From assembly GCA_046723475.1 (NCBI GenBank), contig JBKOUQ010000147.1, positions 23,487 to 87,486 of the forward strand: a DNA stretch of 64,000 nucleotides, in the 5' to 3' direction. Positions 1,183-7,936 of the stretch are shown here, in pieces; the stretch's first letter is position 1; each line of letters opens with the position of its first letter. The position numbers and the translations under genes were made by a program. The DNA is from Candidatus Methylomirabilota bacterium (lineage in GTDB: Bacteria; Methylomirabilota; Methylomirabilia; Rokubacteriales; CSP1-6). Under the pieces are notes generated by a model that saw only the letters and a list, made by a program, of their open reading frames with translations, was not told the origin of the DNA and searched no databases.

Positions 1183-2466
1183 ATGAGTGATCAGAACGAT
1201 CTTCTCCAGCGCGCGGCGCGTGTGCTTCCCGGCGGCCTGCTCGGCAGTCATCGCTCGGGCCCCGGCCTCGAGTTCGTGGTTCGGCAGGGACGGGGCGCGT
1301 ATCTCTACGACGTCACCGGGCGCCGCTATCTCGACTACCTGCTCGGATCCGGCCCCATGCTGCTCGGCCACGCGCATCCGGCGGTGGTGGAGGCGGTGCA
1401 GCGACAGATGGAGCGCGGCACGTCGTACTTCGTGGTGAACGAGCCCGCCATCCGGCTGGCCGAGGAGATCGTGGCCGCGGTGCCGTGCGCGGAGCAGGTC
1501 CGCTACACCTCGAGCGGCAGCGAGGCGACGTTCTTCGCGCTCCGCGTCGCGCGCGCGTTCCGCAAGCGCGACAAGATCATGAAATTCGAAGGCGGCTTTC
1601 ACGGCACGCACGATTACGTGCTGATGAGCGTGTCGCCGCGCTCACCCAAGGCTTTTCCGGCGGCGTCACCCGACTCGGCCGGAATCCCGCCCGCGATCGA
1701 CGGCGAAGTGCTGGTGGCGCCCTACAACGATCTCGCGACCACCGAGGCGCTGATCGACGCGCACCACGACGAGCTCGCCGCCGTCATCGTCGAGCCCTAC
1801 CAGCGGACGATTCCTCCCGCGCCCGGCTTCCTCGAAGGTTTGCGGCGAGCGACGCAGCGGCACGGCGTGGTGCTCGTGTTCGACGAGATCGTCACGGGAT
1901 TTCGCTTCGCGTACGGCGGCGCCCAGGAGTTCTACGGCGTCGTGCCCGATCTCGCCGCGTTCGGCAAGGTCGTGGCGGGCGGCTTTCCGCTCGCGTGTAT
2001 CGCGGGGCCGGCGACGATCATGCGCCACTTCGATGCCGCGCTCGAGGGCACGCCGGACTACGTCTGGCAGGCCGGGACGTTCAACGGCAACGCCATCGCC
2101 GCGGCCGCCGGGCTCGCCACGCTCGGTGAGCTGCGCAAGCCCGGCACCTACGAGCGTCTGTTCGCCACCGGCGCGCGCCTGAAGGCCGGCCTGCAGGCCG
2201 CCGTCACCAAGCACGGCGTCGCTGCGCAGGTGAGCGGCGAGCCGCCGGTGTTCGACGTGTTCTTTACCGATCGCCCGCTCGTGGATTACCGCGCCACGCT
2301 CACCGCGGATCGCGCGAGGCTCACGCGCTTCAACCAGGAGCTGCTGCGCCGCGGTCTGGTGAAGGCCGTGAACAAAATCTACGTCTCGCTCGCCCACTCC
2401 GACGCCGACGTCAGTGAGACGATCGGCATCTTCGACGAGGTGCTCGCCGCGCTCGCGCGCGGCTGA
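1183..2466 (+). CDS. Class-III (PLP-dependent) aminotransferase, glutamate-1-semialdehyde aminomutase-like
   Basis: Internal ATG (aa 55 of the track ORF) gives MSDQNDLLQRAARVLPGG..GSGPMLLGHAHP, a typical HemL-like N-terminus. FDEIVTGFR matches the fold. Start follows the ADH stop after a short spacer. Confidence 0.85.
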   Translation: MSDQNDLLQRAARVLPGGLLGSHRSGPGLEFVVRQGRGAYLYDVTGRRYLDYLLGSGPMLLGHAHPAVVEAVQRQMERGTSYFVVNEPAIRLAEEIVAAVPCAEQVRYTSSGSEATFFALRVARAFRKRDKIMKFEGGFHGTHDYVLMSVSPRSPKAFPAASPDSAGIPPAIDGEVLVAPYNDLATTEALIDAHHDELAAVIVEPYQRTIPPAPGFLEGLRRATQRHGVVLVFDEIVTGFRFAYGGAQEFYGVVPDLAAFGKVVAGGFPLACIAGPATIMRHFDAALEGTPDYVWQAGTFNGNAIAAAAGLATLGELRKPGTYERLFATGARLKAGLQAAVTKHGVAAQVSGEPPVFDVFFTDRPLVDYRATLTADRARLTRFNQELLRRGLVKAVNKIYVSLAHSDADVSETIGIFDEVLAALARG

Positions 2467-2488
2467 CCTCGACCCCACGGAGGCCCGC

Positions 2489-4114
2489 ATGGACCTCAGT
2501 CGACGTGATCTCATCGTTGCTGGCGCCACACTGGCCGCGTCCGCGCTGACCCCGCGCTCGGCGCGCGCGCAGACGCCGCGGCGTGGCGGCACGCTCAGCC
2601 TTCGCCTCTGGGATCCGCCGCACTGGGACCTCGACGGCACGATCTCGTACAAGACCCACATCGCGCAGACGTTCACGCACAGCCGCCTCGTGAAGCACAA
2701 GGCGGGGCCCGGCGTGGCACCGGGGACGCTCGCGATCGAAGGCGATCTGGCGGAGTCGTGGACGCAGCCGAACGAGACGACGTACGTGTTCAAGCTGCGA
2801 CGCGGCGTCCGCTGGCACAACAAGCCTCCGGTGAATGGCCGCGAGCTAACGGCCGAGGACGTGCGCTATACCGTCGAGCGCTTTCTCACCGTCAAAGGCA
2901 ACGCGAACGCCTACATGCTGCGCTCGGTGGACAAGGTCGAGCCACTCGACAAATACACCGTGAAGTTCACGCTCAAGGAGCCGTTTGCGTGGTTTCTCGA
3001 CATGCTCGCGAACCCCATGGCCCTGGCGATCGTCGCGAAAGAAGTCGTGGACAAGTACGGTGACCTCAAGCCGTGGGAGTCGGTGATCGGGACCGGACCG
3101 TGGATGCTCGACAGCTACCGCCCGAACATCGGCTACACCTACGTTCGTAATCCTGCCTACTTCGTCGCGGGCCAACCCTACATCGACCGCATCGAAGTGA
3201 CCATCGATGAGGACAATGCCTCTCGCACGGCCTCGTTCCTCGCCGGCAAGTACGATCTTGGCTGGGAGCTTCCCGGTGGGATCAATCGCTCGGATTGGGT
3301 CCAGCTGCGCGACACACTCAAGATCAAGCGACCGAATTTGCGGGTCGTCGAATTTCCCGGCAACGTGGGCAACCACATCTCGATGCGCGTCGACCAGAAG
3401 CCGTTCAACGACGTGCGCGTGCGCCAGGCGATGTCGATGGCGCTCGACCGCAAGACGCTGGTCGACACGCTGTACGAGGGCGCGGGTGTGGCGAACCCGC
3501 CCGGCGTGCCGCTGGCGCTGAAGGACTGGTCGCTGCCGGTGGACCAGCTCGGCGAAGGCGCCAAGAACTTCGCGTATGACCCGAAGGAAGCCAAGCGGCT
3601 CCTGAGCGCCGCTGGGTATCCGAACGGCTTTCCGGCGACGATCTGCTGGACGACGTACGGCAGCCCGGTCGTCGTCGACCACGCGCAGCTCATCGTGAAA
3701 TACCTCAAGGACGTCGGCATCGACGCCAAGCTCGACACCAAGGAGTACGGTGCGTACATTTCAACGTGCTTCTACGGCAAATTCGATTCGCTGGCGTTCG
3801 GGCCCCAGACGCCGTTCCTCGACGGCGACAATTACCTGTTCGGCTATTACTATCCCGGCGAGATGAAGAATCAGAGCCACGTCAACGACCCCGTGGTGGC
3901 CGACATGCTCGTGCGCCAACGGCGGACGTTCGACGTCGCGAAGCGCCGCGAGCTGATTCACGACACTCAGCGTTATCTGGCGAAGCAGGTGTACTACACG
4001 ACGTCGGTCGGGACGATGTACACGACGCTGTCGGACGGCGCGCTGAAAAACTATGGCCCGAACCTCGGCTACGACTACGGCGGTCGGCTGGTGGCCGCCT
4101 GGCTGGATCGCTGA
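2489..4114 (+). CDS. ABC transporter substrate-binding protein, family 5 (peptide/nickel type), Tat signal
   Basis: MDLSRRDLIVAGATLAASAL is a twin-arginine signal. Length ~540 aa and Dpp/Opp-SBP-like sequence throughout. Start is at aa 26 of the track ORF. Confidence 0.9.
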   Translation: MDLSRRDLIVAGATLAASALTPRSARAQTPRRGGTLSLRLWDPPHWDLDGTISYKTHIAQTFTHSRLVKHKAGPGVAPGTLAIEGDLAESWTQPNETTYVFKLRRGVRWHNKPPVNGRELTAEDVRYTVERFLTVKGNANAYMLRSVDKVEPLDKYTVKFTLKEPFAWFLDMLANPMALAIVAKEVVDKYGDLKPWESVIGTGPWMLDSYRPNIGYTYVRNPAYFVAGQPYIDRIEVTIDEDNASRTASFLAGKYDLGWELPGGINRSDWVQLRDTLKIKRPNLRVVEFPGNVGNHISMRVDQKPFNDVRVRQAMSMALDRKTLVDTLYEGAGVANPPGVPLALKDWSLPVDQLGEGAKNFAYDPKEAKRLLSAAGYPNGFPATICWTTYGSPVVVDHAQLIVKYLKDVGIDAKLDTKEYGAYISTCFYGKFDSLAFGPQTPFLDGDNYLFGYYYPGEMKNQSHVNDPVVADMLVRQRRTFDVAKRRELIHDTQRYLAKQVYYTTSVGTMYTTLSDGALKNYGPNLGYDYGGRLVAAWLDR

Positions 4115-4136: not shown

Positions 4137-5081
4137 GTGTTGAGGCGGTATCTCGCCCGGCGGCTCGTCGTCGCGATCCCCTCGCTGCTGATCGCGAGCG
4201 CGATCGTGTTCGCGCTACCGCGACTCATTCCCGGCGACGCCGTGCAGCTCATGCTCGCCGAGACGTCGTACGCGAAGGATATCGACGAGCTGCGCGCGAA
4301 GCTCGGGCTGGACCGGCCGTTTTACGTGCAGTATGTCGACTGGCTCGGACGCGCCGTCCGCGGCGATCTCGGCGAGTCGCTGTGGACGCGACGCCCGGTG
4401 CTGCAGGAGCTCGCACAGCGGCTGCCCGTCACCGGCGAGCTCGCCGCATACGCCACCGTCGTCGCGCTGCTCATCTCGTTGCCGATTGGGGTGCTGGCCG
4501 CCGCGCGTCAGGACAGTCTCGCCGACTACGTCGTCCGGAGCCTTGCCATCCTCGGGTTGTCGGTCCCGGCGTTCTGGCTGGCCACGTTGCTGATCGTGCT
4601 CCCGGCGATCTGGTGGGGCTGGCGGCCGCTCACGGGGTATGTGGAGTTCCGCGCCGATCCGGTCGCCCACGTCACGCAGCTGCTGCTGCCCGCGGCGATC
4701 CTCGGTATCGCGACGGCCGCGGCGCTCATGCGTCTGACCCGCGGCATGCTGCTCGAGGTGCTGCGCCAGGACTACGTGCGCACGGCGTGGGCCAAAGGCC
4801 TGGCCGAGCGCGCCGTCGTCGTCAAGCACGGGCTGCGCAACGCCGTCATCCCGGTCGTCACGCTGCTCGGCACGCAGCTGCCGCAGATCTTCGGCGGCAC
4901 CGTCGTGATCGAGACGATCTTCGGGTTGCCGGGCGTCAGTCGGTTTCTGTTCGACGCGATCAACCAGCGCGACTACCCGGTGATCCAGGGCGTGAATCTG
5001 CTGGTCGTCTCCACGGTCGTCGTCGTCAACCTGGCGGTGGACACGCTGTATGCGGTCCTCGACCCGCGGATTCGGTATTGA
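4137..5081 (+). CDS. ABC transporter permease (DppB/OppB-like)
   Basis: VLRRYLARRLVVAIPSLLIASAIVFALPRLIPGD is a canonical DppB N-terminus, with multi-TM topology. GTG/TTG start at aa 29-30 of the track ORF. Confidence 0.85.
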   Translation: MLRRYLARRLVVAIPSLLIASAIVFALPRLIPGDAVQLMLAETSYAKDIDELRAKLGLDRPFYVQYVDWLGRAVRGDLGESLWTRRPVLQELAQRLPVTGELAAYATVVALLISLPIGVLAAARQDSLADYVVRSLAILGLSVPAFWLATLLIVLPAIWWGWRPLTGYVEFRADPVAHVTQLLLPAAILGIATAAALMRLTRGMLLEVLRQDYVRTAWAKGLAERAVVVKHGLRNAVIPVVTLLGTQLPQIFGGTVVIETIFGLPGVSRFLFDAINQRDYPVIQGVNLLVVSTVVVVNLAVDTLYAVLDPRIRY

Positions 5082-6001
5082 GCGCAACACGGTCGGCCGC
5101 GCTCGAGCTCAACGGCGCGACGCCGGCCGGCGCACGTCCGCGGACGGCCGTCGTCCGTGGGACGCGGGCGGTGGCGCTCTTCGTCCGGCGCAAGCCGCTC
5201 GGCGCGATCGGCGCCGTGATCGTGGTCGCGATGCTGGTAATGGCGCTGTTCGCCGAGCAGATCGCGCCGTACCGGTACGACGAGACCGTTCGCGGCGCGC
5301 GGATGAAGCCGCCGAGCGCCGCCCACTGGCTCGGCACCGACAACCTCAGCCGCGACATGTGGAGTCGCATCGTGTACGGCGCGCGCGTCTCCATCACCGT
5401 GGGCTTTGGGACGATCGCGCTCGCCATCTCGGTCGCCACCGCGGTCGGCGTGCTCAGCGCGTACTTCGGCGGCCTGTGGGACCTCGGGGTGCAGCGCGTG
5501 GTCGACGCGTGGCTGTCCTTTCCCTATCTCGTCATCATCCTCTCGGTGATGGCGGTGCTCGGGCCGGGACGGCTCAATCTGATCGTGTCGGTGGCGATCA
5601 TTCTGGCGGCGACGAACTCGCGCGTCATCCGGGGCACGACGCTGACCGTGATGCAGAGCCAGTTCGTCGAAGCCGCACGCGCGATGGGATGCGGTCACGC
5701 GCGGATCATCGTGCGCCACCTGCTGCCGAACATCACCGCGACGATCATCATCCTGGCGACGATCGGGCTCGGCGCCGTCATCCTGGCCGAGTCCGCGCTG
5801 TCGTTTCTCGGCTTCGGCGTTCCACCGCCGTATCCGTCATGGGGCGCGATGCTGTCGGGCTCCGGGCGCACGTACATGCTGCGCGCGCCGTGGATGGCCG
5901 TCTGGCCCGGCGTCGCGATTTCGCTCGCGGTGTTCGGCTTCAACATGCTGGGCGATGCGCTGCGCGACGTGCTCGATCCACGGCTGCGCGGCGGACGCTG
6001 A
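5078..6001 (+). CDS. ABC transporter permease (DppC/OppC-like)
   Basis: Sequence ...FVRRKPLGAIGAVIVVAMLVMALFAEQIAPY...LGTDNLSRDMWSRIVYGARVS fits the DppC family. A TTG start overlaps the upstream stop (TTGA), but the exact start is uncertain. Confidence 0.8.
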   Translation: MSATRSAALELNGATPAGARPRTAVVRGTRAVALFVRRKPLGAIGAVIVVAMLVMALFAEQIAPYRYDETVRGARMKPPSAAHWLGTDNLSRDMWSRIVYGARVSITVGFGTIALAISVATAVGVLSAYFGGLWDLGVQRVVDAWLSFPYLVIILSVMAVLGPGRLNLIVSVAIILAATNSRVIRGTTLTVMQSQFVEAARAMGCGHARIIVRHLLPNITATIIILATIGLGAVILAESALSFLGFGVPPPYPSWGAMLSGSGRTYMLRAPWMAVWPGVAISLAVFGFNMLGDALRDVLDPRLRGGR

Positions 6002-6244
6002 GTCGGTTGACGGAGGACGCTGACCCGCTTGACGGCGACGCGCAAGCGGAGTAGACCGGAGCTACGGCGACGGGGAAGTTCTTCGTTGCCGTCGAGGGCA
6101 ACTCCAATCCAGGAGGTGTGGATGGAGAACGCTCCACCGGACTCGCAGGTCGCGTCGCGCTCCGCCTGCTAGCGGCGACGCGCGGCGCCCAGACCCTCGG
6201 TAGTCGACACGCTCCGGCGCACGTCGGAGCGCACGGCAACATGC

Positions 6245-6292
6245 CGTGCAGGAAACAAGGGGAGTACCGCGGGCGGCATTGCCCGCCCGCGG
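6245..6292 (-). terminator. Putative intrinsic terminator for the minus-strand small-ORF pair
   Basis: Perfect 10-bp GC stem ccgcgggcgg/ccgcccgcgg (6267-6292) with a 6-nt loop. On the minus strand it is followed by the U-rich tract CUUGUUUCC. Confidence 0.35.
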
Positions 6293-6307
6293 CCCCCGCA
6301 CCCACCC

Positions 6308-6345
6308 TAGTTTTGACCTTCGATTCTAGTTTTGACCTTCGATTC
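6308..6345. repeat. Perfect tandem direct repeat, 2 x 19 bp (tagttttgaccttcgattc)
   Basis: Seen directly at 6308-6326 and 6327-6345. It lies inside the lower-GC island and overlaps the stop of the 97-aa minus-strand ORF. Confidence 0.9.
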
Positions 6346-6619
6346 TGACCCGCGCGAGCGCGGATTGGAGCAGCCCCGAATACCAGTCGCGGGTCTCGAT
6401 CACGAGCGCGACGGCCATGCCGCGGAGGACGGTGAACGTGTGAACGATCTGTCCCTCAGGTCCGTTGTCCGAGGGCTGTGGGTCGTTCATGCTTGTGTCG
6501 GGGTGCAACGGCAGTGCCACGCGTAGATGTCCGAAATCACGTGAGCACCGATACGCGAACAGCATCTCGCGACGCAATCTCCTGCACGAAGGTCGGAAGC
6601 CAACTGTGCTTTCGGTCAC
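6326..6619 (-). CDS. Hypothetical protein (97 aa), translationally coupled to the upstream Cys-rich ORF
   Basis: Its GTG start overlaps the upstream stop (GTGA). It ends inside the 19-bp repeat and is followed by the hairpin terminator. No recognised domain. Confidence 0.35.
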   Translation of the reverse strand: MTESTVGFRPSCRRLRREMLFAYRCSRDFGHLRVALPLHPDTSMNDPQPSDNGPEGQIVHTFTVLRGMAVALVIETRDWYSGLLQSALARVRIEGQN

Positions 6620-6804
6620 GCCGCGCGCACAGCAGCGCAGCGACCGCAGCGCTTGCGGTCGAGCTCGACCCGATTGCGCAGCGGTCCCTGACAGGCAGTG
6701 CAGCGAGCGTCACGGAGCTGGACGTGATGTGCGCGGCAGGCGCCGGTGGATTCCTTCTCGGCGTGACGAGTGCAGCCGTCCCAAACACATTTTCCGAACG
6801 TCAT
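6616..6804 (-). CDS. Small Cys-rich protein (62 aa), predicted Zn-ribbon
   Basis: Strong RBS GGGAGGA sits 5 nt upstream of ATG 6804. Motifs are C-x4-C ... C-x-HH and C-x2-C-x14-C-x2-C. GC is lower than the genome average. Confidence 0.45.
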   Translation of the reverse strand: MTFGKCVWDGCTRHAEKESTGACRAHHVQLRDARCTACQGPLRNRVELDRKRCGRCAAVRAA

Positions 6805-6949
6805 TCAGGTCCTCCCTGCGCCGAAGCGCGCGAAAATGTCGCGGCGACAGTGCAAGCGATGTGCCCGGAGACGTCGTTCGACGCTGCCGCACGTTGGCGT
6901 GCGGGTGGGCGCGTCGGCAGAGAACTTTCTTTCCCACTTCGGAGCCAGA

Positions 6950-7936
6950 GTGACGACTGATTTGTTCCTCGCATCGGCGGGAATCGACGCGCTCGTACTC
7001 GAACGCGCGGTGCCGCCGAGCTGCTGGCGCGGCGTCGAGCCAGCGCCGATGGGGATGCGCGACGGCGGCGACACGCTGCTGACGTTTCCGACGTGGACGC
7101 CGCGGCGTGCCGCTGTGCACATTCTGCCGTCGTTCGCGCCCCTGACCGACGCGCCGGTCGCATTTCGGTTCGAGCTCGCGGTGCGCGCGGATGGCGAGTG
7201 GTCGCCGTGGGTTACCACGGCGACGATCGGTGATGCACAGTTCGGGTCGTTGCCGTCTGCGGCGCCCGCCTTGGCGTGTGACGTCGATGTATTTCGTACC
7301 GCACGGCCGGTCGATGCGGTTCGGCTTCGCGTACGCGTTCGCGCCGCCGTGAGCGCGCCGTGGCTGGTCGCGTTGTCGGCGGCAGACGAGGGGCCGGGCG
7401 ATGGGCTGGCCACCGCCGGGGTGGCGGTGCCGCTCGCCGTCCCGTCGCTCAGCCAGATGCAAGCCGATGCGACGCTCGGCGCGCGCATTTGCTCGCCGAC
7501 CAGCGTGGCGATGGTGCTGGGCTACTGGGGCCGCCGCGTGACGCCGACGGCGCTGGCTGCGGAGACGTTCCATCCGGCGCTCGACATCTACGGCGTGTGG
7601 CCCGCCGCGGTGCGTGCCGCCGCCGCGCGCGGCGTGGCCGGGTATCTGCTCCGTTTTCCAGACTGGGCTGCTGTGCGCTGGTGTCTGTCCCAGGGGATTC
7701 CGATCGTCGCGTCGGTGCGCTATGCGGCGGGGGACCTCACCGGCGCCGCGGTCGCCGCCACACCGGGACATCTGCTCGTGCTCACCGGCCTCGAAGACGA
7801 TGCGGTGCTTGCGAACGATCCCGCCGCTGCCACCGACAGTGCCGTTCCGCGCCGCTATCGCGCCGACGAATTCGGCCGCGTCTGGCTCGCGCGTGGTGGC
7901 GTCGGCTACGTCCTGTTCGACCCGGCTCGGCTCTAG
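6950..7936 (+). CDS. Papain-like cysteine peptidase, C39-like (Peptidase_C39_2 / YvpB-type) with an N-terminal domain of unknown function
   Basis: ARICSPTSVAMVLGYWG matches the catalytic Cys motif (NCGPTSLAMVL...Y.G) of C39-like peptidases. Start is uncertain, with candidates at 6836, 6893-6905 and GTG 6950. The GC-rich coding signal begins near 6890-6950. Confidence 0.7.
   Translation: MTTDLFLASAGIDALVLERAVPPSCWRGVEPAPMGMRDGGDTLLTFPTWTPRRAAVHILPSFAPLTDAPVAFRFELAVRADGEWSPWVTTATIGDAQFGSLPSAAPALACDVDVFRTARPVDAVRLRVRVRAAVSAPWLVALSAADEGPGDGLATAGVAVPLAVPSLSQMQADATLGARICSPTSVAMVLGYWGRRVTPTALAAETFHPALDIYGVWPAAVRAAAARGVAGYLLRFPDWAAVRWCLSQGIPIVASVRYAAGDLTGAAVAATPGHLLVLTGLEDDAVLANDPAAATDSAVPRRYRADEFGRVWLARGGVGYVLFDPARL

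Follow-up and report, generated by a model that had tools for sequence, protein, structure and literature searches.

The 64,000-nucleotide (nt) stretch of DNA analysed here, referred to below as the window, comes from a Candidatus Methylomirabilota bacterium of the order Rokubacteriales (contig JBKOUQ010000147.1, positions 23,487 to 87,486 of the forward strand) and has a GC content of 69.3%. We studied the 950 bases between the end of a pair of permease genes (6001) and the start of a gene of the Peptidase_C39_2 family (6950). Two small genes lie there on the minus strand: zn62, a 62-residue Cys/His-rich gene at 6616-6804, and orf55, a 54-residue gene at 6326-6490. Each has a sigma-54-type promoter of its own, and together with these promoters they are called the module below. 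Facing the module, on the plus strand at ~6064-6297, is a structured RNA of about 235 nt, within which sits a mini open reading frame (mini-ORF). Rokubacteria abound in soil but have not been cultured, and hardly anything has been published on their regulation. We consider it likely that the interval holds three small, conserved genes that form a cluster found only in Rokubacteria, rather than a spacer or a foreign island. Its most interesting content, the sigma-54 promoter pair and the RNA family, had gone unnoticed in an earlier sequence-only reading of the window.

Among 5.8 billion proteins searched, 81 are homologues of zn62, with identities of 61-92%. Nearly all of them are 62-63 residues long, unannotated and from Rokubacteria/Methylomirabilota assemblies, and zn62 is known from these bacteria only; its profile, run against 1.84 billion representative proteins, retrieved just seven clusters and no distant relatives. 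Among 28 aligned homologues 20 positions are invariant, including C6, C11, H14, C23, H26, H27, C35 and C38, while C53 and C56 are conserved in at least 90%. Mean nonsynonymous divergence (pN) across 40 loci is 0.196 and mean synonymous divergence (pS) 0.606 (dN/dS about 0.18), and variability is highest at the third codon position (0.37, versus 0.15 at the first and 0.13 at the second). In the other two frames pN exceeds pS, the reverse of the true frame. Both the start codon and the Shine-Dalgarno sequence GGGAGGA at 6810-6816 are conserved in relatives. zn62 is a real gene under purifying selection, and it is more conserved than the neighbouring peptidase. The earlier reading had picked out this minus-strand ORF, its ribosome-binding site and its two Cys clusters, and had proposed a small metal-binding product; the first three were borne out, and the last fits the residue pattern.

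The ten conserved Cys and His residues of zn62 probably make up two zinc sites, one formed by C6/C11/C23/H26-27 and the other a CxxC-x14-CxxC ribbon. In the latter, the knuckles C35-x2-C38-x14-C53-x2-C56 place two CxxC motifs at a distance within the 10-20 residues characteristic of zinc ribbons. The N-terminal half of the protein is nearly invariant, and the C-terminal half is variable yet keeps its Cys residues. In its CxxC-x14-CxxC spacing and its size of about 60-70 residues, zn62 resembles zinc-ribbon and C4-finger proteins (Pfam DZR_2 and Zn_ribbon_SprT; DksA/TraR-type proteins). It differs from them in matching below every family threshold: the window protein had no match among Pfam zinc-ribbon families, and the 28 family members gave sub-threshold matches only (best E = 0.0028-0.1). 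Moreover, nothing in Pfam, NCBIfam or PDB corresponds to its invariant N-terminal motif FGKCxWDGCTRHAxK-x5-C-xx-HH, and unlike DksA/TraR zn62 has neither a coiled coil nor a DxxDxA tip. The N-terminal motif brings to mind a C-x-V-x-G-C...C-xx-H-Y knuckle that we take to stand beside HNH nucleases in actinobacterial and phage proteins, a likeness that no tool result supports. Searches of zn62 against Pfam, NCBIfam, PDB sequence profiles, PHROGs and PADLOC gave nothing significant, and tblastn against phage and plasmid collections found no match.

The second gene, orf55 (MNDPQPSDNGPEGQIVHTFTVLRGMAVALVIETRDWYSGLLQSALARVRIEGQN), corresponds to the end of a frame that the sequence-only reading took for a 97-residue ORF. 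Only the last 54 codons of that frame are conserved, and several relatives (L002, L004, L029 and L039) carry in-frame stops just upstream of the orf55 Met. Judged by this conservation and these stops, the 97-residue ORF is an over-extension and the genuine gene is 54 residues long. In public data the lengths called for its 221 homologues range between 54 and 107 residues, so that the new boundary corrects the annotation of one and the same gene. The N-terminus of the protein is variable, acidic and rich in Pro; the 39 residues of its core hardly vary, and the C-terminal Asn never does. Codon-position variability is 0.15/0.10/0.33. AlphaFold2 predicts one long helix over residues 11-52 (predicted local distance difference test, pLDDT, 78), and this single-helix model is useless for fold search. 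Sequence searches of orf55 against the same five resources as for zn62 likewise returned nothing significant. The locus adds two strongly conserved small-protein families without annotation anywhere.

The two genes had also been described as translationally coupled through a GTGA overlap. Against this, 36-150 nt separate zn62 from orf55 in relatives, each gene has its own sigma-54-type promoter, and orf55 has been lost several times on its own while zn62 stayed. We considered stop-codon read-through from zn62 into orf55 and rejected it: the two genes share a frame in about 15 of 35 loci, near the chance expectation of one third. The spacer between zn62 and the orf55 promoter P2 (6492-6615 in the window) retains about 96 nt of recognisable similarity in the closest relatives (L007-L015), which is why public gene calls stretch orf55 upstream to 76-107 residues. 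In other lineages this spacer is reduced to 7-43 nt.

The promoter P1 (GGGCACATCGCTTGCA, GGGCAC-N5-TTGCA) lies on the minus strand at 6851-6866, 46 nt before the zn62 ATG. P2 (TGGCACTGCCGTTGCA, TGGCAC-N5-TTGCA), discovered by aligning the sequence upstream of orf55, lies on the same strand at 6504-6519 and ends 13 nt before the orf55 ATG. Both carry the GG(-24)/GC(-12) elements of TGGCAC-N5-TTGCW at fixed spacing. The motif GGCAC-N5-TTGCW has exactly two matches in the 64 kb, P1 and P2, both on the gene strand, where 0.14 would be expected; throughout 44 genome loci it occurs at the P1 and P2 positions only and on the gene strand only. P1 precedes zn62 wherever the available sequence reaches far enough, and it is absent from all loci without zn62. 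P2 accompanies orf55 in every genome locus that has this gene, at 12-16 nt from the start codon, and is missing from the eight loci without orf55. In 120 metagenome loci P1 co-occurs with zn62 and P2 with orf55 in the same way, and loci lacking the module have no such motif. From this sequence evidence we infer that P1 and P2 are sigma-54 dependent.

Sigma-54 promoters start transcription about 12 nt downstream of the GC and depend on RpoN and an AAA+ activator. Because P2, with its GC at -12, is only 12-16 nt from the start codon, the orf55 leader is predicted to be 0-5 nt long and the mRNA leaderless or nearly so; no Shine-Dalgarno sequence (no GGAGG) lies between P2 and the ATG. The pair shares consensus, spacing and gene-strand orientation with established sigma-54 (RpoN) promoters such as glnAp2, pspA and nifH, and differs from them in the placement of P2 for a predicted transcript start 0-5 nt before the AUG. 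To our knowledge no characterised sigma-54 promoter yields a leaderless mRNA, and a literature search for leaderless sigma-54 transcripts found none; searches on Rokubacteria with sigma-54 and on Rokubacteria RNAs returned nothing relevant. The locus thus offers a clear sigma-54 promoter pair together with a predicted leaderless sigma-54 transcript, a combination that we did not find described.

Between P1 and the start of the peptidase gene, at 6919-6935, we noted an imperfect inverted repeat with the consensus GGNAA-N5-TTCC, which reads GGGAAAGAAAGTTCTCT on the minus strand. Its distance to the -24 element of P1 downstream is about 55-70 nt, as expected of an upstream activator site in sigma-54 systems, and it is also 15 nt upstream of the peptidase start codon. 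We found the repeat in 37 of 59 loci with zn62 and in none of 13 without it (background 0.056 per kb). It may be the enhancer site of a sigma-54 activator. On the related contig L002, a 1.84-Mb Rokubacteria contig, a 1349-residue protein with Sigma54_activat, AAA_16 and TPR domains is encoded at 1-2265 on the minus strand, about 3.7 kb from zn62, which shows that sigma-54 machinery exists in the lineage. The window has no counterpart of this protein at the equivalent place.

Nucleotide-level conservation downstream of orf55 reaches distant relatives, and this is where the plus-strand RNA lies. Its sigma-70-type promoter (6028-6057) consists of CTTGAC at 6028-6033, a spacer of 17-18 nt and TAGACC at 6052-6057. 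CTTGAC is invariant in 33 of 33 aligned loci, and the G, T and A of the -10 box are conserved in at least 90%. Sequence conservation begins exactly at the -35 box and has its other boundary at the terminal hairpin H0. From 5' to 3' the predicted fold comprises a 5' hairpin (6064-6092), a helix in which the Shine-Dalgarno/AUG region of the mini-ORF pairs with CCACCGGACU, helix P3 (6152-6188), whose GCUAGC loop holds the mini-ORF stop codon, hairpins H2 (6210-6231) and H1 (6231-6249), and the GC-rich H0 (6259-6297).

Compensatory change supports this fold. RNAalifold and pair counts on the 33 loci gave 96.7% of alignment cells paired, versus 35-48% with slid partners. In a larger alignment of 64 sequences, non-redundant at 90% identity, 287 cells are changed on both sides of a pair, versus 107 +/- 9 in shuffled alignments (0/500 shuffles reach 287), and 37 pairs have both-side changes versus 27 +/- 2 in shuffles. 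Paired cells amount to 87.9% there (39-48% slid), and the covariation score is 0.248 (0.06-0.08 slid). G.U pairs number 91 on the plus strand and 12 on the minus strand, an excess indicating that the RNA is read from the plus strand. The minimum free energy of the 240-nt RNA sequence is -135.5 kcal/mol (z = -5.1). At permissive thresholds the best matches in Rfam 15 were microRNA models with E = 0.5-6, far below gathering scores, and ARAGORN found no tRNA or tmRNA in the region. The element, with six covarying helices and -35/-10 boxes of its own, is a previously undescribed RNA family with at least 64 non-redundant members on Rokubacteria-type contigs.

On the minus strand, H0 presents a 10-bp GC stem (6267-6292) followed by CCCCUUGUUUCC, a configuration that qualifies as an intrinsic terminator; on the plus strand no U tract lies behind H0 in this genome. 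A simple promoter and terminator scanner detected neither the sigma-70-like box nor H0, the latter because the U run is interrupted. The sequence-only reading had seen in this GC-rich hairpin and U tract the end of the two-gene unit. The hairpin is indeed there, with UUGUUUCC after it on the minus strand, and is conserved in relatives. It is kept even in loci without the small-protein genes, however, and therefore belongs primarily to the RNA, as its 3' end; H0 probably also terminates the convergent small-protein genes. On one metagenome contig (L001, ~4750-4780) the terminal hairpin region of the RNA is interrupted by some 21 consecutive G, which probably arose in assembly or sequencing.

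The mini-ORF (MENAPPDSQVASRSAC and a stop codon; 6122-6172, plus strand) has a Shine-Dalgarno sequence, AGGAGG, at 6111-6116. Of 35 genome loci, 33 have a mini-ORF of 16 codons, and GGAGG or GGGGG always stands 7-9 nt upstream. The consensus reads ME-x-[ATS]-P-P-[DG]-xxx-A-..., with synonymous changes inside the PP[DG] codons (CCA/CCG, GAC/GAT and GGC/GGT). An RNA helix joins the 3' part of the Shine-Dalgarno sequence and the AUG to the Pro-Pro-Asp codons (CCACCGGAC). By the precedent of MgtL (PMC12856214), the mini-ORF may have a role in sensing translation. The family counts over 60 distinct members and is well supported by covariation; it combines a new structured RNA with a tiny ORF that bears a Pro-Pro motif of the ribosome-stalling type.

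Several known systems share part of this organisation. SR1/SR1P, par of pAD1 and txpA/RatA are dual-function small RNAs or convergent pairs that share a terminator, and they likewise feature a structured RNA with its own promoter, a tiny peptide, convergence and a shared terminal hairpin. They differ in three respects: the product of orf55 does not resemble a hydrophobic toxin, RNA and protein genes can each be present here without the other, and no complementarity extends beyond the shared hairpin. As in MgtL/MgtP of Salmonella and SecM-type arrest peptides, an RNA with several hairpins contains a short ORF that follows a Shine-Dalgarno sequence and has Pro codons in a row, and part of the mini-ORF initiation region is likewise base-paired. 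The RNA differs from MgtL/MgtP in having no consistent downstream gene, a same-strand gene following directly in some contexts only, and from the leaders in Rfam in having no sequence similarity to any of them.

At least 38 Rokubacteria genomes have the locus, each as a single copy and with synteny kept across some 10 kb. A metagenome scan with the mini-ORF pattern yielded the 120 loci mentioned above, 54 of them with the whole RNA, and the RNA was found in four contexts. The first is that of the window: permease, RNA, orf55/zn62 module, peptidase. In the second, comprising 13-14 loci, permease-RNA-peptidase synteny is kept without zn62, orf55 or the sigma-54 motifs, and the peptidase starts 15-60 nt past H0, a gap so short that in this sister clade the peptidase may be transcribed from the RNA promoter (L053, at 2880-3200 in the RNA orientation, L068, L109, L120, L122, L146, L151, L153, L154 and L156). 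In the third, the surroundings are unrelated. Near-identical RNA copies with the mini-ORF METTPPGTPAAPERVC (L048, L051, L052, L054, L061, L082, L123, L137 and L155) occupy at least three unrelated contexts, one of them upstream of a gene for an OmpA-C-like secreted protein, and others face convergent genes; these copies may be second copies per genome or rearranged loci. The fourth context is that of a diverged variant (L064, L073, L101, L118, L121 and L150) whose ORF, MENTPP[DG]..., has 18 codons. It has a TTGACA box and ends, on the RNA strand, in a canonical terminator made of a hairpin and a U tract. Downstream of this variant in L073 and L101 is an ORF that starts with a Gln-Trp-Asp-Arg motif (MPQWDR and MAQWDR). 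The persistence of the RNA through four contexts marks it as a self-contained gene. L019, L034 and L035 have the peptidase and the module and lack the RNA.

Between RNA and peptidase gene, the small-protein module is either there or missing as a discrete unit. In a neighbour-joining tree of the peptidase (midpoint-rooted, no bootstrap), the module-less loci all fall in one clade nested among module-bearing lineages, and losses of orf55 are scattered. Since the module-less loci are nested as one clade, the tree favours loss over gain, with the module ancestral, zn62 lost once and orf55 several times. zn62 adjoins the C39_2 peptidase in every locus with enough sequence, and the peptidase also occurs without zn62. 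As zn62 never occurs apart from the peptidase, we infer a functional tie between the two.

We propose the following scheme for the cluster. zn62 would be transcribed from P1 with a normal Shine-Dalgarno leader, and orf55 from P2 as a leaderless mRNA or one with a leader of at most 5 nt. An enhancer-binding ATPase would bind the inverted repeat upstream of P1 and turn on both small proteins together. The convergent RNA would be made from its own sigma-70-type promoter, and its terminal hairpin would double as the terminator of both protein genes. zn62 could then team up, dependent on zinc, with the C39-like peptidase encoded next to it, as its regulator, adaptor or inhibitor, and the RNA could act as an independent riboregulator whose state is set by translation of the proline-containing mini-ORF.

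Several observations weigh against parts of this scheme. Zinc binding by zn62 is read from the residue pattern; the AlphaFold2 model of the protein is weak, with a pLDDT of 66 overall and about 80 for the C-terminal half, and Foldseek found no significant fold match to it in PDB (E >= 4.5). zn62 and the peptidase may stand side by side simply because synteny is conserved within one clade. Both sigma-54 promoters are predicted from the sequence, as are the leaderless start and the ends of the RNA. No sigma-54 activator (GAFTGA/ESELFG motifs) is encoded in the six frames of the 64 kb, and the GGNAA-N5-TTCC repeat is missing or degenerate in about one third of the zn62 loci. As for the mini-ORF, PP[D/G] may be conserved for the sake of the peptide, of the RNA or of the two together, and RNA structure alone could explain it: the D-to-G change keeps a U-A pair as U-G. 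The metagenome loci, in addition, were picked with a pattern that requires the PP[D/G] codons. Finally, duplex prediction between the RNA and the 5' regions of zn62 and orf55 in 35 loci gave a mean z of about 0, with no above-chance pairing.

An alternative that we consider unlikely is that the RNA is the 5' leader or attenuator of the C39-like peptidase, with the sigma-54 module lying antisense within the leader so that the two programmes exclude each other (an excludon). The 13-14 loci in which the RNA directly precedes the peptidase on the same strand speak for it, since 15-60 nt are too short for a separate promoter, and a Shine-Dalgarno-led mini-ORF followed by three GC-rich hairpins is the layout of a leader-peptide attenuator. 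MgtL, a proline-dependent pausing device, provides a precedent for leader control of this kind (PMC12856214). Yet the same RNA precedes unrelated genes or faces convergent ones, its diverged variant ends in a canonical terminator, and in the window 650 nt and two opposing genes separate RNA and peptidase. The three loci that have peptidase and module and no RNA do not fit a leader either.

In a wider version, for which we see about one chance in ten, the three elements of the cluster would form a single regulatory device, an excludon-like toggle between the peptidase and its small zinc-binding partner. The Pro-Pro-Asp/Gly mini-ORF would sense translation capacity (proline supply or the activity of elongation factor P) and decide the fate of plus-strand transcription at H0: to end there, or to continue into the peptidase gene and on the way cross orf55 and zn62 in antisense. 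When activated, the two sigma-54 promoters would drive the reverse programme, with a leaderless mRNA from one of them, and the module-deleted sister clade would keep only the leader-to-peptidase half.

It is improbable, in our judgement, that zn62 is a Cys-rich precursor of a ribosomally synthesized and post-translationally modified peptide (RiPP), or bacteriocin-like, cut by the C39-like peptidase, with orf55 as an accessory or immunity protein. Strict adjacency to a Peptidase_C39_2 gene would suit such a precursor, and the contrast between a nearly invariant N-terminal half and a variable, Cys-keeping C-terminal half resembles a leader/core layout. The zn62 alignment, however, contains no Gly-Gly or Gly-Ala cleavage motif, the peptidase stands alone without ABC-exporter domains, and no modification enzyme is conserved in the neighbourhood. 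The spacing of CxxC...CxxC and of the C/H residues is typical of structural zinc sites, and an entire clade has the peptidase without zn62.

The sequence-only reading itself suggested a horizontally acquired or remnant element encoding a metal-binding regulator or an immunity-like pair. We judge a toxin-antitoxin or immunity pair on an acquired islet very improbable. The description of a compact element was apt: two compact small genes sit side by side in a local GC dip, and the module behaves as an insertion/deletion unit, missing in one sister clade at exactly this site, a presence/absence polymorphism that speaks for an islet. The genes nevertheless have separate promoters and no translational coupling, and orf55, absent in 8/40 genome loci that keep zn62, was lost repeatedly. 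No phage, plasmid, PADLOC or PHROG matches were found, and no repeats or integrase flank the module. Horizontal acquisition is further contradicted by the single-copy synteny in the 38 or more genomes and by module-less loci that form one nested clade, which implies loss. On the combined evidence of synteny, tree and absence from the phage and plasmid collections, the locus is old and vertically inherited, not a foreign island. Lastly, the notion that the small ORFs are gene-calling artefacts in a conserved non-coding region, to which a GC content at third codon positions (GC3) of 0.70-0.72 in both genes, below the 0.81-0.91 of their neighbours, and the commonness of long open frames in 69% GC DNA might lend themselves, deserves practically no credence, being refuted by a true-frame pS about three times pN with the relation reversed in the other two frames, and opposed by a length fixed at 62-63 residues in about 80 zn62 homologues, invariant Cys/His, and a conserved start codon and Shine-Dalgarno sequence.

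The composition of the interval agrees only in part with what had been described, namely a GC content well below background. A drop is real at 6301-6600, where GC is 0.603, among the lowest 0.7% of 300-nt windows. Over the entire 6001-6950 it is modest (0.653 vs 0.693; lowest 4%), and the RNA part (6064-6297) is at 0.70, equal to background.

The tandem repeat noted earlier also exists, as a perfect 19-bp x2 duplication at 6307-6346 detected with Tandem Repeats Finder (TRF). It has no evident significance, being a private copy of the 3' end of orf55: it repeats the last 19 nt of the gene including the stop codon, and none of the relatives examined has it. TRF also reported a 22-bp x2 duplication at 5992-6035, which copies the permease stop codon and the TTGAC box of the RNA promoter. 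Relatives have a single copy of this unit (GGACGCTGA-CCCGCTTGAC), so this duplication too is private to the genome. Both look like recent slippage events without evident function; in this genome only, the RNA gene is bracketed by two private duplications.

Upstream of the interval on the plus strand are a gene for a family-5 solute-binding protein (2414-4114) and, behind it, the two permease genes that end at 6001. Downstream, the Peptidase_C39_2-family gene (6950-7936, plus strand; Pfam E = 8e-20) begins with a GTG at 6950 and is the divergent neighbour of zn62. It had been suggested that the ATPase genes expected in a Dpp-type transporter cluster are missing at this site. The related loci listed with called genes (L001 and L002) have a binding protein and two permeases and equally no adjacent ATPase genes. 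Nothing has been displaced here. In relatives, the cluster of binding-protein and permease genes adjoins aminotransferase, alcohol dehydrogenase and HpcH-aldolase genes.

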